From Massalongia carnosa (lineage: Eukaryota): a DNA stretch of 64,000 bases. The stretch spans positions 2,728,001-2,792,000 of the forward strand of contig OZ287068.1 of the NCBI GenBank assembly GCA_965645245.1. The letters are read 5' to 3'. This document shows, one piece after another, positions 5,360 to 64,000 of the stretch. Position 1 is the first letter of the stretch. Every line of letters starts with the position of its first letter. Position numbers and translations under genes: made by a program. Under the pieces are notes generated by a model that had not been told where the DNA came from, made no database searches, and saw nothing but the letters and a program-made list of their open reading frames with translations.

Positions 5360-8300
5360 TTATCCAAGATGATCCGGTATGGACCTACTCTCAATCCCTG
5401 CCGCCTCGTCAACTTGCCCGTTTGCTTGATAAGCACCGGCGAGCTCATGCTGCGAAGCAAGCCAATCAGGATGATCTTCGGCCAGCTTTTCTTGAACCTT
5501 GACGACGTGCTCGAGCAGCTCGACGGCTTCATCAACTTGCCCGTTTGCTTGATAAGCACCGGCGAGCGCATGCTGCGAAGCAAGTCTGGAGGGATGATCT
5601 TCGGCCAGCTTTTTACGAACCTTGACGACGTGCTCGAGCAGCTCGACGGCTTCATCAACTTGCCCGTTTGCTTGATAAGCACCGGCGAGCTCATGCTGCG
5701 AAGCAAGTCGGGAGGGATGATCTTCGGCCAGCTTTTCTTGAACCTTGACGACGTGCTCGAGCAGCTCGACGGCTTCATCAACTTGCCCGTTTGCTTGATA
5801 AGCACCGGCGAGCTCATGCTGCGAAGCAAGTCGGGAGGGATGATCTTCGGCCAGCTTTTCTTCAACCTTGACGACGTGCTCGAGCAGCTCGACGGCTTCA
5901 TCAACTTGCCCGTTTGCTTGATAAGCACGAGCGAGCTCATGCTGCGAAGCAAGTCGGGAGGGATGATCTTCGGCCAGCTTTTCTTGAACCTTGACGACGT
6001 GCTCGAGCAGCTCGACGGCTTCATCAACTTGCCCGTTTGCTTGATAAGCACCGGCGAGCTCATGCTGCGAAGCAAGTCGGGAGGGATGATCTTCGGCCAG
6101 CTTTTCTTGAACCTTGACGACGTGCTCGAGCAGCTCGACGGCTTCATCAACTTGCCCGTTTGCTTGATAAGCACCGGCGAGCTCATGCTGCGAAGCAAGT
6201 CGGGAGGGATGATCTTCGGCCAGCTTTTCTTCAACCTTGACGACGTGCTCGAGCAGCTCGACGGCTTCATCAACTTGCCCGTTTGCTTGATAAGCACCGG
6301 CGAGCGCATGCTGCGAAGCAAGTCGGGAGGGATGATCTTCGGCCAGCTTTTCTTGAACCTTGACGACCTGCTCGAGCAGCTCGACGGCTTCATCAACTTG
6401 CCCGTTTGCTTGATAAGCACCGGCGAGCGTATGCTGCGAAGCAAGTCGGGAGGGATGATCTTCGGCCAGCTTTTTACGAACCTTGACGACGTGCTCGAGC
6501 AGCTCGACGGCTTCATCAACTTGCCCGTTTGCTTGATAAGCAGCGGCGAGCGCATGCTGCGAAGCAAGTCGGGAGGGATGATCTTCGGCCAGCTTTTTAC
6601 GAACCTTGACGACGTGCTCGAGCAGCTCGACGGCTTCATCAACTTGCCCGTTTGCTTGATAAGCACCGGCGAGCTCATGCTGCGAAGCAAGTCGGGAGGG
6701 ATGATCTTCGGCCAGCTTTTCTTGAACCTTGACGACGTGCTCGAGCAGCTCGACGGCTTCATCAACTTGCCCGTTTGCTTGATAAGCACCGGCGAGCGCA
6801 TGCTGCGAAGCAAGTCTGGAGGGATGATCTTCGGCCAGCTTTTTACGAACCTTGACGACGTGCTCGAGCAGCTCGACGGCTTCATCAACTTGCCCGTTTG
6901 CTTGATAAGCACCGGCGAGCGCATGCTGCGAAGCAAGTCGGGAGGGATGATCTTCGGCCAGCTTTTCTTGAACCTTGACGACGTGCTCGAGCAGCTCGAC
7001 GGCTTCATCAACTTGCCCGTTTGCTTGATAAGCACCGGCGAGCTCATGCTGCGAAGCAAGTCGGGAGGGATGATCTTCGGCCAGCTTTTCTTCAACCTTG
7101 ACGACGTGCTCGAGCAGCTCGACGGCTTCATCAACTTGCCCGTTTGCTTGATAAGCACCGGCGAGCTCATGCTGCGAAGCAAGTCGGTCAGGATGATCTT
7201 CGGCCAGCTTTTCTTCAACCTTGACGACGTGCTCGAGCAGCTCGACGGCTTCATCAACTTGCCCGTTTGCTTGATAAGCACCGGCGAGCTCATGCTGCGA
7301 AGCAAGTCGGGAGGGATGATCTTCGGCCAGCTTTTCTTCAACCTTGACGACGTGCTCGAGCAGCTCGACGGCTTCATCAACTTGCCCGTTTGCTTGATAA
7401 GCACCGGCGAGCTCATGCTGCGAAGCAAGTCGGGAGGGATGATCTTCGGCCAGCTTTTCTTCAACCTTGACGACGTGCTCGAGCAGCTCGACGGCTTCAT
7501 CAACTTGCCCGTTTGCTTGATAAGCACCGGCGAGCGCATGCTGCGAAGCAAGTCGGGAGGGATGATCTTCGGCCAGCTTTTTACGAACCTTGACGACGTG
7601 CTCGAGCAGCTCGACGGCTTCATCAACTTGCCCGTTTGCTTGATAAGCACCGGCGAGCTCATGCTGCGAAGCAAGCCTAGAGGAATTGTCTTCGGCCGAC
7701 GCTCGAGATCGACACTCGACAATGTTTCTGAAAACATTAACCGCCTCTTCATGTTTCCCCTGTTGCAATGATACTCGTCCAGCAAAAAGTTTGATTTGTA
7801 GTGCTACTTCCTGATCGGCTCTATATTTACTTTGCAGCCTCAAGCGGATGCGTTGAACAAGAAAAGCAAACGAGCTATCATTCATGGTATAGAGAACGTA
7901 CGCAAGTTGGAAAAGTATTTGAGCAGCTTCGATATCGGACATAGTCTGTGTGTATTCTTCGATTTCGTGGTTCACACAGGCTCGCACGTGAGGTAGGAGA
8001 AAGATAAAAAAAGGACAATAGGAGTACCATCCCTGACATGATAGCGCGACGATGGTCGCGGCTGACTGCCACGCTCTATATCGACTTTGATTGTCTTGCC
8101 GCTCTTTAGCCCATGCATGCACCAGAGAATGCGCGGTAATAGTGATAGAATCGTCATTCTCGTGCACGGTGATGATCGACAAAGATTCCAAGATTGTACA
8201 AGCTTTGCGCCATCGCAAGCGGTCTTGAAGCCTAGACCATCCCTGCTGAGCATATTCCGGCAGCCTCGCGACGTGACGCACGGATAAAGATAAGACTTCG

Positions 8301-10951
8301 TCGTCATTACTTGTCCCCGTCTCCTTGAGCTCGGAGGCATATTCAGAAGCTTTCCGAAATATCGTCTCAGAAATTCCACTGTTATGCATGAACGCAAGAG
8401 TATGAAGAAAGTTCAAAGAATTCAAATTCTCTGACAGTTTAGAGTTATGAAGATATTCTGCGGAAACCTCGAATGTCGTATACACATTGCGATACACTGA
8501 CAGGTTTTGCTTTGAGTGAAACTTCAGAAGCTGCCCTCTTTGCTGCTGAAAGATGATCGGATACTGCTCGAGAGTACACAACTTTTGCCTGATAAACGCG
8601 CCTGCTTGAATAATTGCAAGCGTATGTGATTCAAGGATTCTGACAACCGCCATAGCAGCTTTCTCTTTTTCCTTCCACCGAGTCTCTGTTATACAGCTAG
8701 CCCGGAGTAGGAGTTCCCGGGCAAGCTCAGGCTCGAGACCACTCAGCGTTTCACGTCCCACGGTGTTGTATGTAGCGCATTCTAGATTGCGTGTAGTGAG
8801 CAAGATATCGCCTCTCCTACTAGGTGGCATATATTCGGAGTAGTCAATTTCTAGATTATCAGCATTGTCGAGGATTAGAAGCCACCGTTGACTACTGCAG
8901 GCTAGCCATGACTTCACATTTTCAAGGGTCGGTTCAGTTACACCGCACCGTCGCCCTATCTCGATATATCCCTGCTCAGCCGTGGTGGTAGTCCTAACGT
9001 CAAGCCAGAAAACCCCCCAGTACCTAGCTTGTCAGCAGGATATCGGCAAGGCGTTTAATTTCACTTACTCGTCTCGATGATCTTCGGCAAACTTCAGACA
9101 GACTTCGCTCTTGCCTGTACCACCAATACCGATGATGACGAAAAGTCTTTGTTGTTTCGCAGGCTTCGAGACATCAAATGAAAGCACTTGAGCAAGGCGC
9201 TCCGCAATCTCTCCTCGTCCAGTATAGACACGGCTGGCGGAACGAGGCACCATCCATTGGCTGGCCGTTTTATAATCTGTGTACATTATATGGAGCTGTT
9301 AGGTGGTCACTGGTCTTGTAGTAAATCGAAGGTCTGCGTTCATAGCGGACAAGGGGGCTCAATATGTTATGAGATTACTGACCGGTGGAGTCTGACCACG
9401 CTGTTGTTTTGGGGTCTTGTAATGTGGGTCTCGGTTAGATTTGAAGCACGGTTAGCGGCGAGAGGACTGACTAAAGACTGCATTGTAGAAGTTTCCTTGG
9501 ACCACTTGGCTGGTCCGAGCATGACTGTCACCAAACTGATTCGAGACCTGCTCGGCCATCGTACCCGACGTCAGCCGTTTGCGGTCACCCATCTCGGTCC
9601 TTATGCCGGTCGAAGTATCTTCTCGCTGATCTATGACTTTATTCACCGCTGACAAAAACAAGAAGATCAGCTTTTGAGTATCTAAAAAACGAATTCAAGG
9701 CGAAGGAATCCTGAGCTCTCGACAACACCCACTAAAAGTGGTTGCGACGTCTTAAGTAAAATCACCGGGGGATATGAACAAAGACTCGAGCCTAACCTGA
9801 TTGTCGATCATTCCCCAATGTTCTGCGAACTGACTTTTCCCAGCGCTGAAGTTCACCTAGAATGGCGTCGTATCCGTGATCTTCTCGGTTTGAGAACTTT
9901 GTCATGTCCTATGATGATTAGCAAATAGAACAACCGATGACATCACCCGAATTACCATGTGATTTGCGTGAATGCCATAACAGCTATAGCCCCTAATCTC
10001 TGCCGAATGTAAAGGCACAATCTAGACGAATCAGGATCAACGTCTAGTGTGATTCATTGACATTCATACTTCTCCAACCCCTATAACACCAAGTTCTTCA
10101 TAGAAACATGTGATTGAGATCTCAGACCCTTCATCCTTCCTTAGTCTGAGGATGTTTTGAAATTCATTTCCCACCATGCGAAGCATTTCGGATCCTGGCT
10201 TCAATACTCCTACGATGTCTGAGTTTGAGCGTTTGAGGAGATTGATCATTCGTGTCCCGAAGCTTGCCCATGATGCTAAATCAGACCCACAATGCGGAAC
10301 TCCCAGAAAGACTATCCCAGCCGTGCAGCGCTCGATCTGACGAAGGAACTTATCTGCGGTATTCCTCGAATAGCCGAGAGCGTGCTCAATAACAAGTCCA
10401 CCCAGACTGTGAGCAATAAATAGAATCTTTCTGGCTTCTGAATTCGTTCTCTCTCGCTTTCGCACAAGATCGCCAACCATATTCTCAGCATGATTGCTCA
10501 GTCGACTGTTTGATGCTGGGTTCCAGAAATTGACGATATCTGCGTCATAGCCAAAGCTCAAAATGCGTGCATCCGGCAAGTCTTGTTTCAGAAGTTCGCT
10601 CGGCCAATGCATCCTTGTGCCCTTGTCCTTATGAAGCCAGGTGTTATACGCATTGCCCGTCAACCCGTGCACGAACACGATATCGACACTCGCCTCCACG
10701 CCACCATCGTACAGCACTTTGACGCCATAGTTCTGGCCTTCTCCGATGGGTGCTGGAGAAGCTTGTATATTTGTAGCAGTCGATGTCGGACCGATGATCG
10801 TCTGGGATAGTTGGACGGCTAGGTCTTGCGATTCGGCGGCTTGTGAGGAGGATCCGCAGGGCTGTTCAGGTATCGGCGGGGGAGGCGTCGGCAGTGATGA
10901 TTGCGACCTTGATTCTCTTGAGCGGAAAAGGCCTTTAAGCTTAAACGGCAT
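5360..10951 (-). CDS. Fungal NLR: SesB-like alpha/beta hydrolase + NB-ARC + TPR array (~1713 aa, 7 exons)
   Basis: Model 10951-10070, 10021-9956, 9908-9797, 9648-9472, 9415-9383, 9276-9069, 9023-5360 (all GT-AG, total 5142 nt, frame-consistent; exon 5 least certain). Hydrolase motifs FVHGLTG, AHSLGG, HANHMDMTKF; Walker A GIGGTGKS; WLLILDNAD; ILLTTRN; LAIIQAGAFI; HSLVHAW; 41-aa TPR repeats. Confidence 0.9.
5400..7680 (-). repeat. 123-bp tandem array encoding 18 full + 1 partial TPR units
   Basis: Unit SRLASQH[E/A/T]LAGAYQANGQVDEAVELLEHVVKV[RK/EE/QE]KLAEDHP; LASQH occurs 19 times. Confidence 0.97.
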
Positions 10952-12208
10952 CTCAATTCAAGACTTTGCGATCTTGTAGTTGGAAAAGTGTACGATCCAT
11001 CTAAGAAAAGAAATTCGCAGCTTTGTACTGCACCTTGGCGCAAGCAAGAAGAGGTAATACTCGTCTGATTGGCTAGACAAATCGATCAATAGCGCTTCAT
11101 TTATTCAACTATTGGCTCGAGACGTCTAAAAGGAGCTGACTCATCACGACAGTCATGGTAGCCTGCAGGGCTGAGCTAGAGCTAATGGGGTTAAGCGATT
11201 ATTCCAAGCATACGAAGGAGTTGAAAATGGTTTCCGCTATTGCTTTCGAAAGCTAGGCACAGATTTTGATCGAATACCATGCTCTGTGTGACACATCTTC
11301 ATAGACCGTTTTTTTGTTCTTCTCCTTTCTTTCTCCTTTCTCCTTTCTCCTTTCTCCTAATCTTTCTTCAATCCGGCGACTTCTTAATTCCCGGCTCTGT
11401 TCTTAACTCACCTATATTCCTCTCTAATTGCTCTTCTCAATATTATAAATGTGGTCGACGATTTATCTCTCTCATGAGCCAACATTATATGGAATACCGC
11501 GGTAACGGCTTCTATATCGAGAAAAGAGAGTGGATCAAAATTCCAGTGCATTGTTGCGATTGCATTTAGAAGAACTTATCCTCTTTGACAAGGAATTCCA
11601 GAAGGACTACAACGACGCCAGTCAGATAGAGATCATCAACTCCTACGCATATATATTTGGAAGGGGCTAGTGTCACTTGCAGTGATCGTTGTTTTGAGAT
11701 CAAGTTCCGTGAGCTACGACCCATATGGATGGTTGGAGGAAGCTAATTCAACAGCGGTAGGTGCCGAGGCAGCTGATGTAAAGTATCAGAAAGGGTCTAT
11801 GAACTAATTTGTCGATAATTATTTCTACGGGAGGAGCATTACTTGGCTTGTAGAGATTTTTCTTTGTCTCCTGAAATAGCTACTCCTAGACGCGGATTTA
11901 GTCTTATCACCATAGGGGATGGAAGTTTCGGATAAGGTGAACATATAAAATTCTCTATATTGTGTCAGAACGTTTCTCTGCTTGGGTTAGAATATATTTG
12001 CGGGACGGTAAGTGGACGAGAGAGAAGACGAGAGGGTGAACGAGAAGGAGGAGATATAGGTCTTCGTGGTGATGTTGGTGGTATTATACGATGCTGATGC
12101 GGGCGATGAGGGTGGCGGGTCAGAACATGAGACACGTGAAGTCGCTTAGCAATATTTAATCTAAGTGATCAGACATTTTCGAGCGGTTGCCCGATCGCAG
12201 CGACATCA
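9264..12208 (-). repeat. Left arm of large inverted duplication (matches 58639-64000)
   Basis: Identical 295-aa and 69-aa ORFs on opposite strands; left = 73264 - right across the coding part; homology ends at TGATGTCGCTG (12208 / 58639). Confidence 0.97.
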
Positions 12209-12785
12209 GCTATCTCTTGCACCATCGGAACTATCGAAAAATGAAGGCATGAAACTAGGGATGGCGAGGGCATGGAAGGAGACAAAGATTGGTTGCGTTC
12301 TTTGTACAAAGGGGGCCTACTGCTTTTGATGTAGATTAAACGTATAATAGAAGCTGAAACAACAGGCAGTCATCATAATGGATTATTTAGCTGATTCATT
12401 AAAATCGTGTCAGTATCCGTCAAGCAAGGCTGCACAACATGCACAACATGCACAAAATTTGTTTGGCATACAAGATGGCATCACTTCATTGAGCAAACCA
12501 ACACGGCGCTCTTCGCTCAAGAAAGCTGCCCGCAGTTATTGATCCTTCATGTTAACGACTTGTTGATATGATCGCGAAGGGCTATCGCAATGTCAGGAAT
12601 CTTTCGAGGACGGCCTCGGCGTTTCAACATCGCAAACTATCATTTCTTGATAGCCTTTTTAGGCTTTCCTCTGCCTCTTTTAATTAGAATCGAAGACGCT
12701 TCCGCGGGCATCGCAGAATGGGAAGATATTGAAGTCAACTGACGTTCATAAATCTTTGACAAGATTTTTGATCTTGATCATGACA

Positions 12786-12898
12786 GATGCAGGCTTTCAT
12801 TCATCGAATTCAGATTCATAATCCTTCCAGCATATGAGATACCATGTGTCTTCAATAGAAAACACCTGTTTATCGACAATGCATTTCAATTCGTAAAA
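12786..12898 (-). pseudogene. Degenerate chromodomain fragment (possible chromovirus/Gypsy relic)
   Basis: Minus frame reads FYELKCIVDKQVFSIEDTWYLICWKDYESEFDE*KPAS, matching the chromodomain pattern YE..IVD..YL..WKGY..D.W with a stop. Confidence 0.6.
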
Positions 12899-13144
12899 CT
12901 TACTTGGTTATGATTCACGCCGCTTGACTCGAATAACGATTGTGAAAGAATTGTCATGACTTGATCAAAGCGGACTGATCATAAAAAGAAACTTATGAGA
13001 AAGATTTAAAAAAAAAAATTTAAGAAGTAACTTGATTGATCTTCGATAATTATGCGCTTGAGAAATTCTTAAAAGAATCATTCTCCAAACTGTAACAGGG
13101 GTGGTAATAAGTCACCTAAGCCACTGAGCCAAAAGGCTACTATG

Positions 13145-14471
13145 CACGCGGGTGACAAAATAAATTGCAACGTGTAAGCGAATTTACCCCTGAATGCCCC
13201 ATCAAAACACCCTCCTTTCTTTCAACTTTTTATCTCATCATCAATGTCTCGACCCAAAAAGCCTCATTATGATACTCCCACAAAGGCCAAAGTTCAAGGA
13301 GCTTATCAATTTCTCATCTCACATGCAATTCCATTCGATCCACGGGCCATTTTTCAGGAATTTGGCGTGGCCGAGCGCGCGGGCTATAACATCATCAAAA
13401 GCGGAGCTTCTTCTCGCACACGTCACAATTCTTCTCTCGTTGAGACTCGGGGTCGAAAGCGAAAGATTAGTGATGATCAGCTGAAGGAGGCAGATCACAT
13501 TCTGCAGGATCAAGATCTACAATTGGAAGGAAAACGCTACACATGGGATGCTTTAGCACAGGAGATTGGGGCCGACGTGATGGGACGTACAATGAAGAGA
13601 ACTCTTAGAGCCGCCTTGAATTATCACAAATGTCTAGCCTGTGTCAAAGGGTGGCTGGCAATGGCATCAGAAGAAAGAAGAGAAGAATTTGCTACAGTTA
13701 TGTTAAATAAATATCCTCGGTCCGAAGACTGGCATCGCGTACGATTCAGCGATGAGATTCATTTTGGCTACGGGCCTGAAGGACAGTTACGAATCATTCG
13801 TAAGCCCGGAACAAGATATCGTTGGGATTGTATTCAGCATCGTGATGCACCACCTGAGAAAGATCGTAAAAGAAAGCACTGCTGGGCAGCAGTTGGTTAC
13901 AATTTCAAGTCGGATATCTACTTCTACGATGTGCCCAGCAATAGCAATGGAAAAATGACTCATCAGGTGTATATTGACGCTATTCTTGATCCCGTCGTCA
14001 AGCCCTGGTTGGAGCGTGGAGATGACTTCGTACTTGAAGAAGATGGAGACTCTGGTCATGGCACGGGCAAGAGACGAAACGCGGTCAAAAAGTGGAAGTT
14101 AGATCACGATTTAGAGCACTATTTCAATTGTTCTTCATCTCCTGATCTAGCTCCCATTGAAAATTGCTGGCAGCCCGCAAAGCAGCATGTTCGTAAATTT
14201 CCTCATTGGGACGATGCAAGTTTGGAGCAGCTGATTAGGGAGGGATGGGCTCGAGTCAGTCAGGAATTTATCAATGAAAGGGTGTTATCCATGCCCAAAA
14301 GATTGAAAGAGGTGAAAGATGCAAAGGGGGCGATGACTGGTTATTGATCTCATGTAATTTAGATGAATTTTATCAGCTATGCAGATGATGGTTGATGATG
14401 AGATGAAAATTTGAATAAAAAAGGGGGGGTAAATTCGCTTACACGTTGCAATTTATTTTGTCACCCGCGTG
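13145..14471 (+). mobile_element. IS630-Tc1-mariner-like DNA transposon (DD38E), intact, 46-bp TIRs, CTATG flanks
   Basis: TIR CACGCGGGTGACAAAATAAATTGCAACGTGTAAGCGAATTTACCCC at 13145-13190 and inverted at 14426-14471; CTATG at 13140-13144 and 14472-14476. Confidence 0.92.
13244..14347 (+). CDS. Tc1-like DDE transposase (367 aa)
   Basis: VRFSDE, CWAAVG, EEDGDSGHG, SPDLAPIENCW; 38 residues between second D and E. Confidence 0.92.
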   Translation: MSRPKKPHYDTPTKAKVQGAYQFLISHAIPFDPRAIFQEFGVAERAGYNIIKSGASSRTRHNSSLVETRGRKRKISDDQLKEADHILQDQDLQLEGKRYTWDALAQEIGADVMGRTMKRTLRAALNYHKCLACVKGWLAMASEERREEFATVMLNKYPRSEDWHRVRFSDEIHFGYGPEGQLRIIRKPGTRYRWDCIQHRDAPPEKDRKRKHCWAAVGYNFKSDIYFYDVPSNSNGKMTHQVYIDAILDPVVKPWLERGDDFVLEEDGDSGHGTGKRRNAVKKWKLDHDLEHYFNCSSSPDLAPIENCWQPAKQHVRKFPHWDDASLEQLIREGWARVSQEFINERVLSMPKRLKEVKDAKGAMTGY

Positions 14472-15411
14472 CTATGGTAGTTCTCCTATGGAGACACTAC
14501 CGCTTATTACACCACATAGGTGCCCCGCTCCCGGTACGTCACCGTACCTACTTAGGCGCTCATGTATTGCGCCTGCTGGCTAGCAGTACTGAGTGCCGCT
14601 GTAACACATGTGTCTTTCCTCGAAAGTTTGAACTATTCGCCGAGAAGCTGGCGGAACGGCGACTGATTTACTGATAATGACCACGGTCTGAGATGATTGT
14701 TCGTAAAATTGCATAGAGTTCATATTAACAAAAGGCATTATAGCTTCGTAAATGAAGAGGTAGTTGAGAATCGTAAGAGTTAAATAGAATATCAGGTAGA
14801 GAGAAGACTGCATGAAGTATTATAAACTGCCTAGCGCGCCAAGGCTCGCAGGGCTGCGCTACACCTATAAAGGGGGTGGAGGATAATTTACTTTCTTTCT
14901 CGAATGAGGAAATGTAAAAATATCAAGAAAACAGTGTACAACAAATCCTCAAAATATGATGATCCTTCAACGCTACAATTATCGTATTATCAATTAATTC
15001 TCCGACTTCTCTAAAGTGTGAACAACTACTCAACCTAAGCCTTGCTTAAGTTATTTAATGGTAGCCGCTAACAAGTACCGACTTCCGTCTCATGAAGCTT
15101 GTCTCTAGCTTTCAGTCGTGTGCGTTCTTCCCTTAGCAGGTGCGACTATGTGGCTTCAAGGTGAATATAGCATGAAGTCCTTCGAAGCTGGCGATAATGT
15201 GCTGGTTAGCACTTATCCTCTATTCGGAATCCTCGGCTTGTTGCATAACCACCCAATCTGTGACTCTGGTCGGGCGATTTTATAAAAAGGCTAGTACTTT
15301 CCCAACTTCTCTCAAGCTCTTACTATCTCTGAAAAATATCTATTTCTCCTCAATCTGATCCAGATACTTTTGCCCCCCAAACAGTTGCTCCAGGTTTCTC
15401 CGCTTCGCAGC

Positions 15412-17067: not shown

Positions 17068-18233
17068 TTACAAGAGATTGGAATGAGGGGAGATGTCTAC
17101 TCAAATGCTACTTGCGGAAATTTTTGACTTAATTACATTGTCTAGGAGGGTTCAACTTGATGAAGAAGAAAACTCATCCGAGTTTCAAACGTAGAGGTTA
17201 TCCGTTATCAGTCTCGAGTATCCACTATCGATATGTCTATACTCAGAGCTTTGATCTTGATGAGTACTTGTATTGTCTACTCGTGGAAAGAGCTGCGAGG
17301 ACCAATATGCAAGTCCCAGCTGTCGAATGTCCTATTCTACCCAAACAGAAGATCTTAGGAGCCAAATAACCTAGATCACAGGATGTGGTTTTGTCCCAAA
17401 CCAACTTCTAAAATTCATCCCTTTAAAACCATCAAATTTGGCCTCAAGCACAAGATAGCCACAAGTGTAAATAAAACCATCAATTTATTTAGGTAGAGAG
17501 CTGATCAAAAGCGTTACCACAATGACAAGTAAAACTGATAACCTATCTAGATCTTCAACCTAACACATTTCTCCACCAACCCCCCAGGAACTACCTACCT
17601 TTTCAAGTTTCCAGCAGGGCACTCACCACGCTCAAAAAGTAGAGTAGTGGTAAAACCTGCACTTACGCTGAATGAGAGTGGGATAGTTATCGAAATTGAG
17701 GAAAGCACAGTGACCTTCTAGGTATTTCAATCGCTCAAACTTGGGAACCTCAGTCTACTCTCTTATAGATCATAACTTAACATAATCTAGCGAGTAATGA
17801 AAACGAGAAAGACTTCTTTCCCCCCTTCTATCGCCGTAATAGAGGAGAGATTGAATAGAGTGAGTTAGTGAAAAACCTCTCATTGTGCTGTCCCTTTATT
17901 TATCCTTACTTAAAAGGCTTCCTAGAGTCTCTAGGGCTTATTTTTTTTTTTCATAACTCTATTCATATTGTGTAAATTATGTGTGTTCAGTAAGCAAAAC
18001 AAGAGCCATGAACTTCGTTCTCATTCAGTATAATTTAAATCAATTCCGCCGAAAAGAGAAAGAAAGTAAACAGAACTCGTCATTTCCTCATTTAGGATCA
18101 CCTCGTCTGTCGACACACCAGCCACTCGTTTCCCCTTACTATATTTCCTCCTGCACCCCTGTCATATTATTTCCCTCTTACAGCTAGGCACACTGGACTG
18201 AGTCGAGGATCAGTCTGTCATGTATAGGCTTCA

Positions 18234-18988
18234 TTATGCATTAAAGACAGAGGCAGAATGACTAGCGGAATAAGCTGACCGCCAACGACTTGTACGAAAG
18301 GGCCTAAAACGTCTAAGGCGTCGACGTTCAGCTCTTGGCTCCCCTGAGGTTGCGGTTGTTTTATCTCGGTAGTGACTCAAGAGTAGGATGGCTGCGAACA
18401 CCAAAACCATGATTCCAGCTACAACTCCGACAGAAATGTAACAGATGTCGGATTGAGGATGGGGATGAGAGGAAGCAATGGTTGGTGGTGTGCCTGCTAA
18501 CCTAGCTGAGGCGGAGGTTAGTGGATTAGAGATTGAAGGGGTTATCGTAATGCCTTCGGGTGGAACTGTAGCGTTGGGACCGGGAGTGATTATGGCGGAA
18601 GCCGTACGGGATGAGAGTGTTGCCAAAGAGGATGCCCTCAAGGGTGAGAACGGCGCTACTAAGTACGGATTCGACAACAGTAGGCCAGCGGTCAAACCAC
18701 CAATAGGACATCCACCATTGCACGGATCGGACTTGCAGCAGCCCATAAAGGGCGGCCTAGTAGCCGCACACATATACCAACGACTGCCAGATGACATTTC
18801 TGATCCGGAAACCTTCCATGATAGCTTGAGTCGAAGCTGGCGGGCTCAAGGTTACCGTATGTACAGCCACTGTTGCAGGCCTCGGAGGTGCAGCATCCCA
18901 CGAACTGGGACCCGGTGTTACAAACGTAGAACTCGCCTCCCAATGGGCATGAAGGAATGAAATCTTGACGCCGCAGAGGGGAGGACAT
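18234..18988 (-). pseudogene. Cys-rich two-repeat surface/membrane protein, frameshifted
   Basis: Two similar modules (CP.GG.FYVC...FVGCC..AC..GC and WYMC...FMGCC..PC..GC) in different frames joined by a 1-nt deletion near 18797; S/T-rich stalk and a TM helix follow. Confidence 0.6.
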
Positions 18989-53496: not shown

Positions 53497-54650
53497 TGTT
53501 GCGAATGACGAGGATTGTATATATAGGAATGTATATATAGGATGTAACAGTAGGAATGTAGCTGTAGGAATGTAACTTCATTGACTAGATTATGCTGCGA
53601 TAAAGCATTAATAACTACGTTTACGTTCTAAACACTCAGTCAAATCCAACGCATGCATACATATTCCACCTAAACTAGCCAACCAAACCTAGTCATACTG
53701 AACCTAACCATACCCAACCTAACCTAGTTGCCACGCGCGACCACTGATAACCTGTTTGCTTTTAGATATGGCACCGAAGACTCCGCGCAAGCGTACGCGC
53801 AAACCTGCGCGAATTCCAAACCGAACACTCGATAGAATACCCAGACCAGGTGCCAGAACTGGTGCGATAAGAAAACCAACCACCAGGAAGAGTATGCCTG
53901 GTGGTAAGTAGATGGTATAGTTGAGAATACATAAGATACTAACGCCGATCGCCACGTTGATAAGTCAAGGTCCATTACTAAGCATGTGATTTGGGTAACC
54001 CAATGAAAACCCAACCCGAACCCAACCCAACCCAACAATAACCCAACCCGAACCCAACCCATCATTGGGTTGGGTTCTTTACGTGAGAACCCAACCTAAC
54101 CCATCCCATTCCGCGGCGTAGTCTCTTGAGAGTCTCCCAATCAATCGCTTTTTTTCTACCTCGAGTCTCTGGCCAGACCGAAGTTGTGATGAAATCGACG
54201 AGATGATTCGCCCCGAAGCATGGCATAACCGCTCGTTCGTTCCACGCCGAAATGACGAAAAACGTCTTCTTTAAAATAGAGAATTTTATGAGCATCATTA
54301 AATTCAACAACAGCTTGAACTTTAGCTTTTATGGGCGTAGAATACTCCTGATTACAGTTATGATCATCAAAATCAGGTGTACTAGAACGATTAATTGATG
54401 ATTGATTATTCATAATGAGGGAGTTGGGTAAAAGAAGGATTTTTAGGGTGGGTGAAATTTTTGGTGTGGGAACTTTTTTTGGCCCCGCGTGCGGGGTAGG
54501 TAAACAATGGCATAAAAGTCCCGGTTTTCTACTCTGTACGGAGTACGGAGGTTGACACGAAAAGTCCTTGGTAGCGTGCATTAGTGCTGTTTTAGCGTCA
54601 TGCAGAAAGAACGCTAACAATTCAATAGGGGTTTCTTATACACTTTGACC

Positions 54651-54739
54651 TAACCGTGCGACCGAGGTAAATCCGATGGACCGCACCTGGAGCGTAGCTC
54701 CGGGTGCGGTCCATCGGATTTACCTCGGTCGCACGGTTA
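54651..54739. mobile_element. TIR-only hairpin micro-element in the Tc1 5' region
   Basis: TAACCGTGCGACCGAGGTAAATCCGATGGACCGCACC...GGTGCGGTCCATCGGATTTACCTCGGTCGCACGGTTA near-perfect palindrome. Confidence 0.75.
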
Positions 54740-54784
54740 TGCAGCATCTTTTATTTATCAAATATCATCAAGTAAAATTTTATA

Positions 54785-56154
54785 TGCTTCAAATCATGAC
54801 ATCACGAACTCAGAACAATAGTCTGACCATTGGTCAAAAGTTACAAGCATTATCTTTGATTGAACATGGCATAACAGCCAAAGTCGTTCAAGCAGTCACC
54901 GGAGTCTCCATTCAGTCTATCAGCTATCTCAAACGCAAGGCACGAGATCGAGGATATGATCCCACTGTTTCGCGAATACTGAAGGTAGAATACGTGCAAG
55001 ATGCACCTCGTTCAGGACGTCCTCTCAAAGTGACGCCTGAGATAGAACAGGCCATTTTAAATAACGTTCGTCATGATCGAAATAGTAGAAAAAAATCTTC
55101 AGCCGTTTTGGGATATAAACACGGAGTTTCATCTGCAACTATTCTCAATGTTCTTCGACGCAATAATTTTCGTTCCTGCAAAACTACCATAAAACCGGGC
55201 CTTGATTCAGCAATGAAAGAAGCTCGATTGCAATTTTGTTTGCGCTATCGTCACTGGACTCTCGATGATTGGAAGAATGTTATATGGAGCGATGAAACCA
55301 GTGTCGTGTTGGGCTCTCGACGAGGACGAAGATTTCAATGGCGAACTCCAAACGAAAAATATGCTCAAACGTGCATCCGAAGTATATGGAAAGGATGTTC
55401 CGAGTTCATGTTTTGGGGTTGTTTTTCGTATGAAAAGAAAGGTCCTTTTCATATATGGAAGCCGGAGACAGCAGCAGAAAAACACGCCGCTCAAAAAGAA
55501 ATTGACAAAATCAATGAGGCACTGGAGCCTCTAGCGAAAGAAAATTGGGAATTGGAAACGGGGATGAAACGAATGAGACTGCGTACCAAAGGAGGCCGAA
55601 AACCAGCCTGGAGATGGGACGAAAAGCATGGAAAAGTGGTCCGAAAAGGCAAAAGAGGCATCGCCTGGTATTATTATCAAAAGATCATTCTTCTTTCCAA
55701 ACTTCTACCGTTTGCCAAAGAATGTATGAAGGATCGTCCCGATACTATTATACAGGAGGACAAGGCTCCCAGTCATGCTTCTAAACATCAAGACCTCGTC
55801 TTTATGGATGCAGGAGTCTTGCGTTTATTGTGGCCGGGTAATTCTCCCGATTTGAACATGATCGAGCAATGTTGGTCCTGGATGAAAAGAAAAACCACAC
55901 GAAAAGGAGCACCTCGAAATCGCATAACGGCTACCAAAACATGGACTCAGTGTTGGACACAAAGTCTGAAACAAAAACAGATTCAGCACTGGATAGAACG
56001 AATTCCACGACATATAGAGGAAGTCATCGCTTTGGATGGAGGAAATGAGTATCGAGAGGGTCGAGACAATGGTGTGATTCGACCATATAATACCGAAGAT
56101 CGTCGCATTCGTTATTGTAAAGACATTATATCTGATGACAGTGATGTAGATTGA
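54785..56154 (+). CDS. Tc1-like transposase DD34E
   Basis: IWSDETS, MFWGCF, QEDKAPSH, WPGNSPDLNMIE; true start probably at ~54785-54797 rather than inside the hairpin. Confidence 0.88.
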
Positions 56155-56618
56155 TGATGTCATAAGTTTGTATGTAGGCCAGATTTTTAATGCATTATAT
56201 CGTTTGAAAATGAGGTTGATGTAGAAAATAGAGACGATAAATCATATAGAAAAGGGGCAGTGGCGCTACGCTTAATCCTTAGTGTCATTATTAGCGCATC
56301 CAAGGACTTTTCGTGTCAACCTCCGTATGGCATGTCTGTAACTAGCATCATCGTCGATCGGGTTGTTCGGATAAGATGTTGGCCACCAAAAAGGGATGCT
56401 AGAGAGAGGGATGTTATATGAGAGAGAGATATATATACACTCAACACCTCTCAAATACTCTAGGTAGTGTCATGTAGATGATTGGTGCATTGACTTGCGA
56501 TCTCTATTCTTTGGCCCGGAAAAATCCAATTCGCTTTACACGTCCCAAAGTCGAGGGCTTTCCCTCGGAACCTGGTACATCATCGTGCAACCTTTCAAAA
56601 CCCTTGCCTTTCAAGACC

Positions 56619-57074
56619 ATGTCCCACACTCCCTCCACCCTTTCCCCAATCGCCCCCTACCTCCTCGCCTCTGTCCGCATCAACCAGCTCACCCCTCCCG
56701 CCACTGCCTGGCTCGCTCGCGTCCTCACTGCCCTTGATGCCAAGGACATAGACGCCTATACCTCCTTCATAACCCCCACCTGCAAGATCACCTTCAACAA
56801 CGGCACCCCGACCCTCCAGGGCCTCGACGACATACGGACTGGTCTTTCAGGATTCTGGGCCACGTTCGGCACATTACGGCACGAGGAGCTGAACATATAT
56901 GGCACGGATCATAATTTCGTCCACGAGGCTTTGAATTATTATACGACATTGGATGGGAGGGAGGTGGTGTTGAGGGCGGTGGCGTTTGTTGATCGGGATG
57001 AGGAGGGCAAGATGGAGGCGGCGAGGATCTATAGTGATCAAAGCCCCCTGTGGGGGGAGGGCGTCGTGGGGTGA
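56619..57074 (+). CDS. SnoaL-like / NTF2-fold protein
   Basis: ALDAKDIDAY..F......F.NG.PT.QG.D.IR.....F; RIY.D..P C-terminus; ~150 aa. Confidence 0.75.
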   Translation: MSHTPSTLSPIAPYLLASVRINQLTPPATAWLARVLTALDAKDIDAYTSFITPTCKITFNNGTPTLQGLDDIRTGLSGFWATFGTLRHEELNIYGTDHNFVHEALNYYTTLDGREVVLRAVAFVDRDEEGKMEAARIYSDQSPLWGEGVVG

Positions 57075-57199
57075 GTAGGTTGAAATACTCGGTGAAAGAG
57101 TCGTGGTGTTGGGAACAAGGTTGCCAAAATGTCAGGCTAGCGTGAGCGGAAAGGATTATCGTTTTCATGCAGGCGATGCTAGACGTATCCTGCTGCTTC

Positions 57200-58171
57200 T
57201 CATTCTCCTCCGCTCTCCTCAGCCTCTTTCTGTCGCCTCCTTCTCTCCTCGGCCGCCTTCGCCATCACTTCCCTTCTGTCCAACCCTCCTCCGGCACCAC
57301 CCTGGCCCCGCCCCCCGAGCACAAATTCTCCACCCGTCCACCCCCCGCCATCTACATCCTCTTCCCCCGGTTCGTAGAAAACCTCCTTCGTCAACGCCCT
57401 CCCTCCACCTTTCCAATCTCCTCTCTCCACCTCCTCCTCAATCTCCCTCGTCAGGTCCCAGAACCGCCGATCATGGTCCCCGAACACGTTGTGCGCCAGT
57501 TCATGGCACAGCGTCTTCCGAATGATCTTGTAGTCGCGATAGCCATCGTAGGCGTCCGTGCGCAGCCGTAGCTCGATGACTTCGCCCCGGTTGCGGTTGA
57601 GCCCCAGCGTACGGCTCTCGTGCGTGGTGTGCGCAGCGGGATCCATCTCCGTCAGCACGCCAACACTGAACTTATGGTGTGCCATGGCTGATTGAACACC
57701 CGGATCCGCACGCAGGCGCTCAAGGTAGGCGAGGGAGCGAGCCGGGTTGGGGAGGTAGGGCAGGGGAAGCAGCGTGTGGAACGTGTAGGATGCGCGGTCT
57801 TTAATCTTTTGGTGATCGAGATGCCGGGATGGGACTGCGGGTTTTTTGGACGAGGGTCGCACGGGGGGAGGGGCGATGCTGATAAGGTCTTTGGGGGTGG
57901 GCGCTAGGAGCAGGATTTTCTTGGTGAGCAGGGTTGAAAGGGGAAGGGGAGGAAATGGGGATTTGAGGAGGCCGGTTTGAGGGGTTATGAGGAGTTTTTG
58001 GTTGGCGGGGGGGATGGAAAGGGTGCTGCTAATGGAGAGGGAAAGGTCAGCTAAAGTGGAGGTGGAGGGGAGGATGAATGTATGAGGGGTGCCGTGGTGA
58101 GTGAGGGTGATGCTAATGATAGAGTCGGAGGGGATGGGCGTGGGTAGGGGGGATTGCTCGAGTTCCGCCAT
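57200..58171 (-). CDS. Ubiquitin-like + WLM (Wss1-like) metalloprotease
   Basis: N-terminal UBL-like region (IPPANQKLL), LGLNRNRG..I.LRLR, HELAH zinc motif, H...FW. Confidence 0.88.
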   Translation of the reverse strand: MAELEQSPLPTPIPSDSIISITLTHHGTPHTFILPSTSTLADLSLSISSTLSIPPANQKLLITPQTGLLKSPFPPLPLSTLLTKKILLLAPTPKDLISIAPPPVRPSSKKPAVPSRHLDHQKIKDRASYTFHTLLPLPYLPNPARSLAYLERLRADPGVQSAMAHHKFSVGVLTEMDPAAHTTHESRTLGLNRNRGEVIELRLRTDAYDGYRDYKIIRKTLCHELAHNVFGDHDRRFWDLTREIEEEVERGDWKGGGRALTKEVFYEPGEEDVDGGGWTGGEFVLGGRGQGGAGGGLDRREVMAKAAEERRRRQKEAEESGGE

Positions 58172-59492
58172 GTTGAAGGAGTTTGGGGAGGATGACGGGG
58201 AAGGGAAAAGAGTCCATACAAAGGGTCATGAAGTTATAAGCCACGATAGTGATTTGTCACTTTCTACGGCGAACTGTTGAACGAATAGTCATATATTTGG
58301 AATCCTCATCACAACCTTTGTACTAGAAAGGTTCGCCTCCTGCAACGGATTTCTTTGAAGCTCTCTCCTGCCACTTTGACTCCTACCTCAGGATACAGTA
58401 AGCGCAGAGGCCTTCCTAAAGACTAATGTATTTTACTCTAAGACGCCTGCCTCCCAACAAGGGAGGTCAATCATTTGTTCGCAACGAACAAAATTAACGC
58501 AAGTCAATAATTCTAAACCTACATTCTCTTCGTTCATTTTACTTGGATGCTGCTTGTGGGTCATGAAAAGCCTGCCAGGGATGGCTGCTCAACTCCCAGA
58601 GTTGAGCAGCGAATCCATGGGAAACGCGGGTATCCTCATGATGTCGCTGAGATCGGGCAACCGCTCGAAAATGTCTGATCACTTAGATCAAATACTGCTA
58701 AGCGACTTCACATGTCTCATGTTCTGACCCGCCACCCTCATCGCCCGCATCAGCATCGTACCACCAACATCACCACGAAGACCTATATCTCCTCCTTCTC
58801 GTTCACCCTCTCGTCTTCCCTCTCGTCCACTTACCGTCCCGCAAATATACTCTAACCCAAGCAGAGAAACGTTCTGACACAATATAGAGAATTATATATG
58901 TTCACCTTATCCGAAACTTCCATCCCCTATGGTGATACGACTAAATCCGCGTCTAGGAGTAGCTATTTCAGGAGACAAAGAAAAATCTCTGCAAGCCAAG
59001 TAATGCTCCTCCCGTAGAAATAATTATCGACAAATTAGTTCATAGACCCTTTCTGATACTTTACATCAGCTGCCTCGGCACCTACCGCTGTTAAATTAGC
59101 TTCGTCCAACCATCTCATATGGGTACGGAACTTGATCTCAAAACAACGATCACTGCAAGTGACACTAGTCCCTTCCAAATATATATGCGTAGGAGTTGAT
59201 GACCTCTATCTGACTAGCGTCGTTGTAGTCCTTCTGCAATTCCTTGTCAAAGAGGATAAGTTCTTCTAAATGCAATCGCAACAATGCACTGGAATTTTGA
59301 TCCACTCTCTTTTCTCGATATAGAAGCCGTAACCGCGGTATTCCATATAATTTTGGCTCATGAGAGAGATAAATCGTGGACCACATTTTATAATATTGAG
59401 AAGAGCAATTAGAGAGGAATATAGGTGTTGAATATCCAATTCCTACTACAGTACAATGAACATACGGCTGCCCTAGATGGACAGATCATCTA

Positions 59493-61712
59493 CAGAGGCG
59501 AATCTCAAAAGTAATGATAATACGCTAAAAGCTAGTGCCGTAATTTAAATTTTCCGTACCGAGCAAATTTTCCCCTTTTCTTTCCCCTTTTCTCATCCCA
59601 AATCATTTACGAACCAACATTTGATCAAATCATCATCATGGTCAATAAATCAGCTGATATTTCTTTGCGGGCTCAGGTCTTGACGTTGTCTTATTGCACC
59701 CCGGCCTCAATTGAATTTATTGCAGCTACTACAGGATATTCTGTCCCCAACATTTATCGTATTCGTCGCATTGCCAGGGATCGAGGATTTGATCCCGCCA
59801 TTTCTTTGCAGGTGCTTGATAAATACGCCCGTCATGAAGAAAAATCTGGTCGACCGAGAAAGGCTACTACTGAGAAAGAAGATGAAGTCATTGATCTAGT
59901 CATAAAAGACAGATACGCCCGTGAAAAAACCAGTGCCCAGTTGGCAAGAGAAGTTGGACTGTCCAGATGCACCGTGTGGAGAATCCTGAAACAAAGAGGC
60001 TATAAAAAAGTCAAACCGTCGTATAGACCAAGGCTTAGTCCTGAAACGAAAGCGGCTAGACTGGCTTTTTGTCTCCTGTATAAAGACTGGACCGTGGAGG
60101 ATTGGAAGCGGATTATTTGGTCAGATGAAACAGCAATAGTGCTTGGTCACCGTCGCGGAGCTGTCAAAATTTGGCGTACAACCAAGGAAGGAAGGAGACC
60201 AGTCAAATCCACCGTACGTGCCAGGTGGCATGGGGCTCATGAATTCATGTTTTGGGGATGCTTTTCCTACGATTGGAAGGGGCCATGTCATTGCTGGAAA
60301 CCGGAGACAAAAGCGGAAAAAGCGGAAGCCAAAACCAAGCTTGACGAGATGAATGCTGCATTGGAAGCCAGTGAGAGATTAAATTGGGAGCTGACCAATG
60401 GAATGAGACGTCTTTCAACTCGCAATTTACCAGGAAAAAAGCCGCAATGGAAATGGGATGAGGAACATGGAAAGATGATCAGAAAAGAAGGTAAAGGAGG
60501 CATTGATTGGTGGCGGTATCAAAACGTCATACTTCTGCCAAAACTGATTCCTTTTGCTCAGCAATGCAATGCAAAAAGAAGAGAAGCCGGATTGTCTGAA
60601 ATGATCGTACAGGAAGATAAGGCTCCGTCTCATGCTTCCAAGCATCAGATTCCCATCTTCTCTCGTCATGGCATCGAGCGTCTTTTATGGCCCGGAAATT
60701 CTCCTGATCTCAACATGATTGAACCCTGCTGGCCCTGGATGAAGCGACGTACAACTGCCAAAGGTCCTCCTAGTTCTCGGTTAATTGCTGAATCTATGTG
60801 GCATCGCACTTGGGACGATCTACCTCAGGAGAATATTCAGGCATGGATTGAAAGAATTCCACGTCACATTGCAAAAGTCATTGAATTGGAAGGTGGAAAT
60901 GAGTATTGCGAAGGACGTTTTTTTTTACATATTGAATTGTTTATTCAATTGTTGTTTAATTTAAACCATTTGGACGTTGATGGACGGACCAAAGAAGGAA
61001 AAATGCGACTTCAACAGCTGAGGGAAGAATTGCTCAGTAATACAGCAAAACCAGCTTCTTCTTCTTCTTCTTCTTCTTCTTCTTCTGTGGCGTCAACGAG
61101 ACCATCATCTAGACAATCTGTCAAATGTCAGCTATACTGGCATTAACCAACATTGGTCAACGGGCCCGTCACATGCCCGTCACATGACATTGCCACCGCG
61201 GCACAGGTAAAAATTCTTCATCCCCCACATTCTTTCTTCCTTCGGAGACATCTCTTGATCTATCCCCTGGCGGCATACCTAGCTAGAAAATCATCTATAG
61301 ATCAATGCCATTCATTTCACCTCATCTGGTCAAGACGTAAATCATCTCAACTGATCATCAGGGCAAAAAGCCTCAGACAATCAAATGATGATACACCCAG
61401 CCCGTTGAATGTCAGGGCAGTTACCCCTGAGCCCGTTGAATATCAGGGCAGTTACCCCTGAGCCCCCTACACAGAAGCCATTGACACCCCCCTTATTGAG
61501 AAAAAGAGCCGTTTTATCTCCGAAAAATCACCTTCCCCCACGCATTCAAAAGGTGGTTCGTACTGCAGCCAGTTTCAGACCAAAAAGACGTTGATTAGAT
61601 GGTTAGTAATGGCATTTGTAGATAGTTGGTAGAATTTCAGGCTCGGTATGGAAAATCTAAATTACGGCGCTAGTCTTTAGCGTATTATCATTACTTTTGA
61701 GATTCGCCTCCG
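59493..61712 (+). mobile_element. Tc1-like (DD34E) transposon, ~72-bp imperfect TIRs, TA TSD
   Basis: CAGAGGCGAATCTCAAAAGTAATGATAATACGCTAAA... versus ...TTTAGCGTATTATCATTACTTTTGAGATTCGCCTCCG; TA flanks. Confidence 0.92.
59638..61146 (+). CDS. Tc1-like transposase DD34E (502 aa)
   Basis: IWSDET, MFWGCF, QEDKAPSH, WPGNSPDLNMIE; related to the 54785 transposase. Confidence 0.9.
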   Translation: MVNKSADISLRAQVLTLSYCTPASIEFIAATTGYSVPNIYRIRRIARDRGFDPAISLQVLDKYARHEEKSGRPRKATTEKEDEVIDLVIKDRYAREKTSAQLAREVGLSRCTVWRILKQRGYKKVKPSYRPRLSPETKAARLAFCLLYKDWTVEDWKRIIWSDETAIVLGHRRGAVKIWRTTKEGRRPVKSTVRARWHGAHEFMFWGCFSYDWKGPCHCWKPETKAEKAEAKTKLDEMNAALEASERLNWELTNGMRRLSTRNLPGKKPQWKWDEEHGKMIRKEGKGGIDWWRYQNVILLPKLIPFAQQCNAKRREAGLSEMIVQEDKAPSHASKHQIPIFSRHGIERLLWPGNSPDLNMIEPCWPWMKRRTTAKGPPSSRLIAESMWHRTWDDLPQENIQAWIERIPRHIAKVIELEGGNEYCEGRFFLHIELFIQLLFNLNHLDVDGRTKEGKMRLQQLREELLSNTAKPASSSSSSSSSSVASTRPSSRQSVKCQLYWH

Positions 61713-62312
61713 TACGGAAACCGTAGATGCCGCATTAGGCTTAGTCCCAAGATAATATAAGATCGCCTCGCTTAGAAGGGGTGACCAGTAATAGGAAAAG
61801 ATTGCTGCCTAGCAACTCTACCTTTATTATTACATAGCCATATAGCCATAGTCATATACCTATTTCAACAATAGGTGAGTTAAGAACAGAGCCGGGAATT
61901 AAGAAGTCGCCGGATTGAAGAAAGATTAGGAGAAAGGAGAAAGAAAGGAGAAGAACAAAAAAACGGTCTATGAAGATGTGTCACACAGAGCATGGTATTC
62001 GAGCAAAATCTGTGCCTAGCTTTCGAAAGCAATAGCTTTTCAACTCCTTCGTATGCTTGGAATAATCGCTTAACCCCATTAGCTCTAGCTCAGCCCTGCA
62101 GGCTACCATGACTGTCGTGATGAGTCAGCTCCTTTTAGACGTCTCGAGCCAATAGTTGAATAAATGAAGCGCTATTGATCGATTTGTCTAGCCAATCAGA
62201 CGAGTATTACCTCTTCTTGCTTGCGCCAAGGTGCAGTACAAAGCTGCGAATTTCTTTTCTTAGATGGATCGTACACTTTTCCAACTACAAGATCGCAAAG
62301 TCTTGAATTGAG

Positions 62313-64000
62313 ATGCCGTTTAAGCTTAAAGGCCTTTTCCGCTCAAGAGAATCAAGGTCGCAATCATCACTGCCGACGCCTCCCCCGCCGATACCTGAAC
62401 AGCCCTGCGGATCCTCCTCACAAGCCGCCGAATCGCAAGACCTAGCCGTCCAACTATCCCAGACGATCATCGGTCCGACATCGACTGCTACAAATATACA
62501 AGCTTCTCCAGCACCCATCGGAGAAGGCCAGAACTATGGCGTCAAAGTGCTGTACGATGGTGGCGTGGAGGCGAGTGTCGATATCGTGTTCGTGCACGGG
62601 TTGACGGGCAATGCGTATAACACCTGGCTTCATAAGGACAAGGGCACAAGGATGCATTGGCCGAGCGAACTTCTGAAACAAGACTTGCCGGATGCACGCA
62701 TTTTGAGCTTTGGCTATGACGCAGATATCGTCAATTTCTGGAACCCAGCATCAAACAGTCGACTGAGCAATCATGCTGAGAATATGGTTGGCGATCTTGT
62801 GCGAAAGCGAGAGAGAACGAATTCAGAAGCCAGAAAGATTCTATTTATTGCTCACAGTCTGGGTGGACTTGTTATTGAGCACGCTCTCGGCTATTCGAGG
62901 AATACCGCAGATAAGTTCCTTCGTCAGATCGAGCGCTGCACGGCTGGGATAGTCTTTCTGGGAGTTCCGCATTGTGGGTCTGATTTAGCATCATGGGCAA
63001 GCTTCGGGACACGAATGATCAATCTCCTCAAACGCTCAAACTCAGACATCGTAGGAGTATTGAAGCCAGGATCCGAAATGCTTCGCATGGTGGGAAATGA
63101 ATTTCAAAACATCCTCAGACTAAGGAAGGATGAAGGGTCTGAGATCTCAATCACATGTTTCTATGAAGAACTTGGTGTTATAGGGGTTGGAGAAGTATGA
63201 ATGTCAATGAATCACACTAGACGTTGATCCTGATTCGTCTAGATTGTGCCTTTACATTCGGCAGAGATTAGGGGTTATAGCTGTTATGGCATTCACGCAA
63301 ATCACATGGTAATTCGGGTGATGTCATCGGTTGTTCTATTTGCTAATCATCATAGGACATGACAAAGTTCTCAAACCGAGAAGATCACGGATACGACGCC
63401 ATTCTAGGTGAACTTCAGCGCTGGGAAAAGTCAGTTCGCAGAGCATTGGGGAATGATCGACAATCAGGTCAGGCTCGAGTCTTTGTTCATATCCCCCGGT
63501 GATTTTACTTAAGACGTCGCAACCACTTTTAGTGGGTGTTGTCGAGAGCTCAGGATTCCTTCGCCTTGAATTCGTTTTTTAGATACTCAAAAGCTGATCT
63601 TCTTGTTTTTGTCAGCGGTGAATAAAGTCATAGATCAGCGAGAAGATACTTCGACCGGCATAAGGACCGAGATGGGTGACCGCAAACGGCTGACGTCGGG
63701 TACGATGGCCGAGCAGGTCTCGAATCAGTTTGGTGACAGTCATGCTCGGACCAGCCAAGTGGTCCAAGGAAACTTCTACAATGCAGTCTTTAGTCAGTCC
63801 TCTCGCCGCTAACGGTGCTTCAAATCTAACCGAGACCCACATTACAAGACCCCAAAACAACAGCGTGGTCAGACTCCACCGGTCAGTAATCTCATAACAT
63901 ATTGAGCCCCCTTGTCCGCTATGAACGCAGACCTTCGATTTACTACAAGACCAGTGACCACCTAACAGCTCCATATAATGTACACAGATTATAAAACGGC
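62313..64000 (+). CDS. Second copy of SesB-NB-ARC(-TPR?) NLR, truncated by the window end
   Basis: Exons 62313-63194, 63243-63308, 63356-63467, 63616-63792, 63849-63881, 63988-; exon 1 protein is identical to the left copy. Confidence 0.88.

Follow-up and report, generated by a model that had tools for sequence, protein, structure and literature searches.

Near-identical inverted copies of an NLR gene region flank a 46-kb block containing essential genes in the lichen-forming fungus Massalongia carnosa

The closest described systems to the locus treated here are the fungal NOD-like receptors (NLRs; NOD, nucleotide-binding oligomerisation domain) whose repeats are highly conserved internally. 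In Podospora, Dyrka et al. describe a gene combining a sesB-like domain, an NB-ARC domain and tetratricopeptide repeats (TPRs), the repeats being conserved and length-polymorphic (PMC4986451); according to that work, the statement in a first-pass annotation of the present DNA that such receptors diversify by repeat shuffling is correct. NLRs of high internal conservation are also reported to lie near transposons, possibly to have been duplicated through them, and to exchange repeats (PMC13449251). Here we analyse a window of 64,000 nucleotides from Massalongia carnosa (assembly GCA_965645245.1, contig OZ287068.1, positions 2,728,001 to 2,792,000, forward strand) in which an NLR gene and the 5' part of a near-identical copy lie in opposite orientation on either side of a 46-kb block (Table 1). 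The arrangement probably arose by a recent, transposon-associated inverted segmental duplication of an NLR of high internal conservation, within a family of at least three copies and with likely gene conversion.

The likeness to the HNWD/nwd WD40 genes and the sesB-like/NB-ARC/TPR genes (Pa_2_10340) of Podospora lies in a three-part architecture and in the small number of variable codons. Fungal NLRs of high conservation further resemble the present genes in the identity of their repeat units (above 85%; here 97%), in their association with transposons and in having near-identical paralogues, and here too repeat number may vary among relatives. The units are 41 amino acids long here, compared with the usual 42 in the genes of PMC4986451. 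The host also differs from that of the Podospora NLRs in being lichen-forming, as does the layout, with two copies set as a wide palindrome round essential genes, and the genes described here are known from sequence alone. To our knowledge, chromosomal layouts that would permit NLR repeats to be shuffled, whether inside one gene or between paralogues, are poorly described and the NLRs of lichen-forming fungi have hardly been studied; a literature search for this combination found no paper with the term 'lichen-forming fungi'.

The large ampliconic palindromes of the human Y chromosome are kept alike by gene conversion from arm to arm. Very high identity of the gene-bearing part of the arms and inverted orientation are shared with the present locus, which differs in its 46-kb spacer of essential single-copy genes, in its arms of at least 3 kb and in that conversion is suggested here by a step in divergence. 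Plant head-to-head pairs of sensor and helper NLRs, for their part, lie side by side with a common promoter, and their members have diverged strongly. What the present locus has in common with these pairs, and with the NLR clusters of Sordariales, is that a single stretch of chromosome carries a divergently oriented pair of NLR genes; with start codons 51 kb apart and a visible gene part that is 99.8% identical, it is not a head-to-head NLR pair of the plant type. In PMC12258605, which covers another fungal order and one with repeat-induced point mutation (RIP), clusters are defined by a separation of less than 40 kb and fewer than eight other genes, and paralogous copies are reported in 16 of 272; a near-identical pair 46 kb apart with more genes in between is unusual by that yardstick. 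Another parallel is offered by the flip/flop regions of budding yeasts, described for Ogataea polymorpha, for Komagataella phaffii (138 kb) and for Ascoidea rubescens (44 kb, with 2-kb inverted repeats; PMC6692504). There, as here, kilobase-scale inverted repeats containing the 5' parts of genes flank tens of kilobases of ordinary genes. In the yeasts, however, both orientations are documented, and through flipping the mating-type (MAT) genes pass between an expressed and a silenced site.

Table 1. Positions of the inverted repeat, the NLR gene copies and other features in the window
Feature	Position	Strand	Remarks
Left NLR gene	5360..10951	-	Start codon 10951-10949, stop codon 5362-5360; intact
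TPR array	5409..7697	-	18 full units of 41 amino acids (123 nt) and one partial unit
Left arm of inverted repeat	9264..12208		Extent limited to the partner visible in the window
58-nt fragment of high-copy repeat	11150..11207		In both arms, just before 11228; another copy at 2429-2486
Spacer (core)	12209..58638		46,430 nt; mostly single-copy genes including essential ones, several transposons and open reading frames without Pfam match
Tc1/mariner element	13091-14877		Transposase open reading frame 13178-14347
RPC2	23329-26744	-	Best solved relative yeast Pol III RPC2, 1431.9 bits, against 681 bits for RPB2
PUF	30484-32946	+	Pfam
SF3B2	37073-38686	-	DUF382 and PSP
RSM27	39615-39857	-	MRP-S33
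RNase III	40180-41181	+	Pfam
Pogo-type open reading frame	47384-49534		DDE_1 and HTH_Tnp_Tc5; adjoins DDE_3 open reading frame 49431-50213
Tc1-type transposase open reading frame	54649-56154
SnoaL	56478-57074	+	Pfam
WLM	57200-58225	-	Pfam
Right arm of inverted repeat	58639..64000		Cut by the window end
Insertion	59428..61877	+	2450 nt; absent from the left arm; start codon of the right copy about 440 nt downstream
Right NLR copy, 5' part	62313..64000	+	Start codon 62313-62315; DUF676 exon, short exons and start of the Walker A exon

The first-pass annotation had described positions 9264-12208 as the reverse complement of 58639-64000, and the same coordinates were obtained by a repeat search, by self-BLAST and by global alignment. 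The repeat search yields five collinear inverted segments, which self-BLAST merges into two blocks, pairing 9264-11415 with 64000-61871 and 11409-12208 with 59427-58639. In the global alignment homology ends on the inside at 12208 and 58639. On the outside the repeat reaches the end of the window, and the arm length of about 2.9 kb is thus a minimum. Both genes face outward from the core. The gene-side part of the repeat, in which 9264-11227 pairs with 64000-62037, contains four mismatches in 1964 nt (positions 9450, 9794, 9821 and 9989; identity about 99.8%, given as 100% after rounding in the repeat search). The upstream part, in which 11228-12208 pairs with 62036-58639, contains 19 mismatches in 946 nt (identity about 97%) as well as six small indels of 1-14 nt and the 2450-nt insertion in the right arm.

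The left gene has several short introns between about 9031 and 10069, the exon borders having been read by hand. As proposed from the raw sequence, it encodes an NLR of SesB-like (DUF676)/NB-ARC-type/TPR architecture with highly conserved repeats, an identification that Pfam matches and collinearity with a protein of the lichen fungus Endocarpon pusillum (P0018) bear out. Exon 1 matches DUF676 (PF05057) in both copies, with E = 1.3e-9 and 38.3 bits against a cut-off of 20.3, and a GxSxG-type motif, AHSLGG, is seen in the open reading frame (ORF) of this hydrolase domain; sesB and alpha/beta-hydrolase annotations are merged in PMC4986451. The Walker A exon (9065-9298, with GIGGTGKS) aligns with residues 306-366 of the Endocarpon protein at 43% identity, and the long ORF of the gene, over 388 residues, with residues 368-753 at 38% identity, the motifs LLILDNAD and LLTTRN included. 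The Endocarpon protein itself passes the NB-ARC model (33.3 bits against a cut-off of 23.5, residues 333-550), and by this homology, rather than by a direct model match, the NOD of the left gene is named NB-ARC-type. The 3' ORF matches TPR_12 with 530.5 bits in 17 stretches and TPR_10 with 462.5 bits in 18. No entry in the protein database is identical to the left NLR protein, the best relatives being proteins of lichen-forming fungi, among them an ENA protein at 86% identity and one from Stereocaulon virgatum at 74%.

In the array at the 3' end, Tandem Repeats Finder reports a period of 123 nt, 18.6 copies and 96% matches. The mean pairwise nucleotide identity among the 17 full units compared is 97.2%, the minimum 92.7%, and ten distinct protein units are present. 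Variation is confined to 14 nucleotide sites, of which 11 are non-synonymous and cluster in codons 6, 31 and 32. The array falls within the class of high internal conservation as defined in PMC4986451, with units more than 85% identical over at least 100 amino acids. A scan of metagenome contigs for relatives returned 24 related loci, and their arrays are built on the same 41-residue unit. In loci with 86% protein identity, the open frame measured from a shared anchor runs to 538, 702 or 784 amino acids, lengths that differ by multiples of 41, though these are relatives belonging to other species and short-read assemblies can collapse arrays. Among the five closest relatives (L001-L004 and L020) the NLR arrays, at about 13275-14646, also differ in length between metagenome samples; two of them, L001 and L004, have an open frame that breaks off after two units and may represent collapsed or broken short-read arrays.

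The right copy is open wherever the left is, over the first 1.7 kb of the gene, which is all that the window contains of it, and its ORF at 62307-63200 gives the same Pfam matches as the left copy. A hand reading of the alignment assigns the four differences between the two genes to a change of Thr to Ala (9821), a synonymous change (9989) and two intronic ones (9450 and 9794). The insertion upstream of the right copy carries a Tc1/mariner-type transposase ORF (59536-61146; DDE_3 and HTH_Tnp_Tc3_2 in Pfam) between inverted termini of 74 nt, located by self-BLAST at 59491-59564 and 61641-61714. A direct duplication, ATAGG(TG), is found at both ends of the insertion and the left arm contains a single clean empty site, so that the insertion postdates the duplication. 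One start codon therefore has a transposon 440 nt upstream and the other has none; as a conjecture, a swap between the arms could matter for expression or product. The inserted sequence extends past the Tc1-type termini by 63 nt on one side (59428-59490) and 163 nt on the other (61715-61877), and its outer ends are compatible with TG...CA and a duplication of 5 bp, as in a solo long terminal repeat; a Tc1 element may thus be nested in a short older insertion.

Public read sets were compared over positions 7700-27699 of the window, using the Logan contigs of four runs (X1, X3, X4 and X5; four samples from three studies) among 11 listed. All 11 consist of short-word contigs, and no piece compared spans a whole arm. 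A 27-kb contig of X1, with a depth of 323.7, covers 14851-27699 and shows no differences over the 12.8 kb compared; X1 therefore derives from the same or a near-identical strain. The letters of the right arm at 9794 and 9821 are found in X1, X3 and X5, and its 8-nt deletion at 11228 in X3. The extra A of the right arm at 11446 occurs at roughly single-copy depth in both X1 (377.7/1672.1) and X3 (823.8/3644.4), and a contig at 12167-13118 bridges the left inner boundary in the same two runs. Since the arms differ structurally and both of their variants are present in public contigs, the duplication is real, and a fold-back or double placement is unlikely.

The same contigs suggest that the gene exists in more than these two copies. 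Single-contig depth over the gene is 921, 1041 and 1156 in X1 against 323.7 for the single-copy contig, 2114.7 against about 850 in X3, about 65 against 26-44 in X5 and 11-14 against about 2-9 in X4. A haplotype unlike either arm, with A to G at 10992 and loss of one nucleotide at 11006, is present in X1 (422.6/1272.6) and X3 (786.9/2175.8), in each at about the depth of a single copy. Within the NOD region at 7749-8990, 17 listed sites are covered in X1 only by contigs with letters other than those of the left copy, at about three times single-copy depth. The genome therefore contains further copies of the NOD region, differing from the left one by about 1.5%. One NLR copy may be broken: in X3 a deletion of two nucleotides at 8128 has the depth of a single copy. 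The 5' half of the gene is thus probably present in three or more near-identical copies. The initial description of two near-identical, outward-facing NLR genes holds for what the window contains, where both can be seen facing outward, but the depths and the third haplotype indicate that the genome probably has at least three.

Several further features of the contigs touch on copy number and arm type. The depth bin 11035-11701, at about 45 times single-copy depth in X1, contains the 58-nt fragment of the high-copy repeat. A joint between 11207 and 14547, on opposite strands, might have marked a third NLR copy carrying a transposon; this reading was rejected because positions 11150-11207 belong to that high-copy fragment and the shorter side of the joint measures only 30-32 nt. 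At 11851-12158, where six sites distinguish the arms, the sole X1 contig has the left-arm letters and the sole X3 contig those of the right arm, and X5, a second strain, is a mosaic of left-type and right-type letters. Either real conversion differences or an effect of contig building (bubble removal) could produce this contrast and mosaic.

Divergence between the arms changes abruptly along their length. It is 0.2% in 9264-11227 (4/1964) against 2.0% in 11228-12208 (19/946), a difference with Fisher p = 9.8e-7, and when the gene part is restricted to estimated intron and 5'-flank sites (2/640) the comparison with the upstream part still gives p = 0.003. Between 9990 and 11227 the arms are identical over 1238 nt, a run that takes in an intron and 270 nt before the start codon and in which a divergence of 2% would predict about 25 differences. 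RIP was rejected as the source of the differences between the arms, which comprise 13 transitions and 10 transversions. Judged from the aligned arms, the step would most likely mark the end, near 11228 and beside the 58-nt high-copy fragment, of a conversion tract or of a later re-copying.

Two other accounts of the repeat deny, respectively, the exchange between copies and the palindrome itself. In one, the duplication is older, nothing has passed between the copies since, and purifying selection by itself has kept the gene part more alike. The gene part does differ little between strains, X5 showing 5 differences in 623 nt and 8 in 1279 nt, and just four differences between the arms are available on which to judge. 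Against this, introns and 270 nt of 5' flank are conserved like exons, the expected differences are wholly missing from the 1238-nt run, and the change at 11228 is sharp; we consider this account unlikely. Less likely again, to the point of being hardly credible, is an assembly artefact, in which one NLR locus, whether an allele or a collapsed paralogue, was placed twice and the chromosome contains no palindrome. Assemblers can produce near-identical inverted repeats reaching as far as the sequence in view, as in the DISCOVAR case related in PMC6692504, and the comparison with reads covers only the left of the two junctions. The arms, however, are distinguished by 23 substitutions, six small indels and a transposon with its target-site duplication; contigs from a single strain include the haplotypes of both arms, two runs contain a contig across the left junction, and contig depth over the gene exceeds single-copy depth in all four runs. 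Moreover, the 46 kb between the arms is unique sequence, so that the repeat does not fold back on itself. The explanation that we favour, a recent inverted duplication with likely conversion in a family of at least three copies, has points to answer as well. The right copy can be followed only to the start of its Walker A exon, and that it continues through NOD and TPR parts is suggested by signals that come from several copies and allow no assignment to the right locus. Of the two inner junctions, only the left was checked against reads. Contig depth is not copy number, and in the same run flanks that look unique vary between about 0.8 and 1.4 times the baseline; minor variants are also dropped from Logan contigs, so that the letters present may reflect graph cleaning. 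X5 is unusually close to the window in the gene part too, differing there by 0.4-0.8%, whereas in the core non-coding parts differ by about 1.2-2.2%, and stronger constraint on the gene part, or another process, could underlie the divergence step. Finally, the Pfam NB-ARC model, run on unspliced pieces of a domain that is split by an intron, gave no match at threshold, those pieces producing only sub-threshold matches to AAA_16 (18.4 against 32.6) and DUF7779 (17 against 27).

If the favoured explanation is correct, an NLR gene would have been duplicated in inverted orientation within a transposon-rich stretch of a lichen-forming ascomycete genome, conversion or later re-copying would subsequently have homogenised the gene part, and one arm would then have received a transposon. 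If the roles known from characterised fungal NLRs apply here, ligand sensing would fall to the TPR array, oligomerisation to the NOD and the part of effector to the hydrolase domain. The topological argument of the first-pass annotation is sound, in that crossing-over between inverted copies inverts the spacer without deletion. Inversion of the core is accordingly possible, and an occasional crossover of this kind would be a passive result of the layout. A stronger reading takes up the annotation's idea of an invertible cassette for diversification: recurrent recombination between the arms would flip the 46-kb core, crossovers within the TPR arrays would produce chimeric sensors and selection would maintain the layout. 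The inverted arms, at least 2.9 kb long and 97-99.8% identical, would suit such a device, and the divergence step fits exchange between them; in yeasts, inverted repeats of about 2 kb flip segments of 19-138 kb (PMC6692504), and repeat exchange between paralogous NLRs has been reported in Podospora (PMC12222747, PMC13449251). Yet such exchange needs no inverted layout, and the hints of a third copy elsewhere point to a small, recently expanded, transposon-associated family rather than to a dedicated two-arm device. Conservation of the layout also finds no support among the 24 related loci, none of which has a second copy within 10 kb or shares flanking genes. A crossover in the near-identical 5' part would merely swap promoters. 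The short-word contigs, which span no arm, display neither orientation of the core, and no chimeric array was seen, the TPR array of the right copy lying outside the window. A cassette of this kind therefore seems to us very improbable. That the arms recombine in nature, giving strains or nuclei with the core in both orientations and chimeric receptors without loss of genes, we likewise hold to be a long shot; if true, a layout resembling flip/flop would have been recruited for the diversification of immune receptors instead of mating-type switching. For the present, the locus represents nothing more unusual than transposon-associated segmental duplication within a gene class already known. 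It presents young paralogues without RIP-like mutation, inverted around genes that cannot be lost, and the markers specific to each arm, namely the transposon and some 20 variants, would allow long reads to score inversion and conversion directly.

Among the related loci, the five closest show about 88% nucleotide identity to positions 5100-11146 of the window and nothing beyond. Synteny of the core block, suggested at the outset as a check, was not found, none of the 24 metagenome loci having any core gene within 10 kb; a second NLR copy within 10 kb was equally absent from all 24, though a partner 46 kb away would escape view. With core genes missing from the vicinity of every locus and homology ending at 5100 and 11146, neither junction can be called ancestral. 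Varied neighbourhoods among relatives are as expected for a mobile, transposon-associated NLR. The left outer flank (1-5100) has no similarity to any of the 24 loci. It contains no ORF longer than 107 amino acids and its G+C content is lower (0.41-0.46), and it includes a 17-nt tandem array at 2504-2758 in addition to the further copy of the 58-nt fragment at 2429-2486.

As to the core itself, the naming of RPC2, SF3B2 and RSM27 in the first-pass annotation agrees with the scores against solved relatives for the first and with the domain matches listed in Table 1 for the other two. The Tc1/mariner element near its left end is present at about 50-100 times the single-copy contig depth in X1, where some contigs skip the element or connect its two ends. 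Young DNA transposons seem to be plentiful in this genome, which shows little trace of RIP. A transposon-dense stretch of the core, 46986-56154, is marked by 90-nt inverted matches between 46986-47073 and 54403-54492 and by two short hairpins that are nearly perfect, at 50230-50302 and 54651-54739. Between the RNase III gene and this stretch, a hexanucleotide array, (TTGCTG) repeated 63 times with 99% matches, occupies 43711-44091 and is open in all six frames. Read on the minus strand, where it lies in an ORF (43661-44314) without Pfam match, it would encode a run of about 126 glutamine residues.

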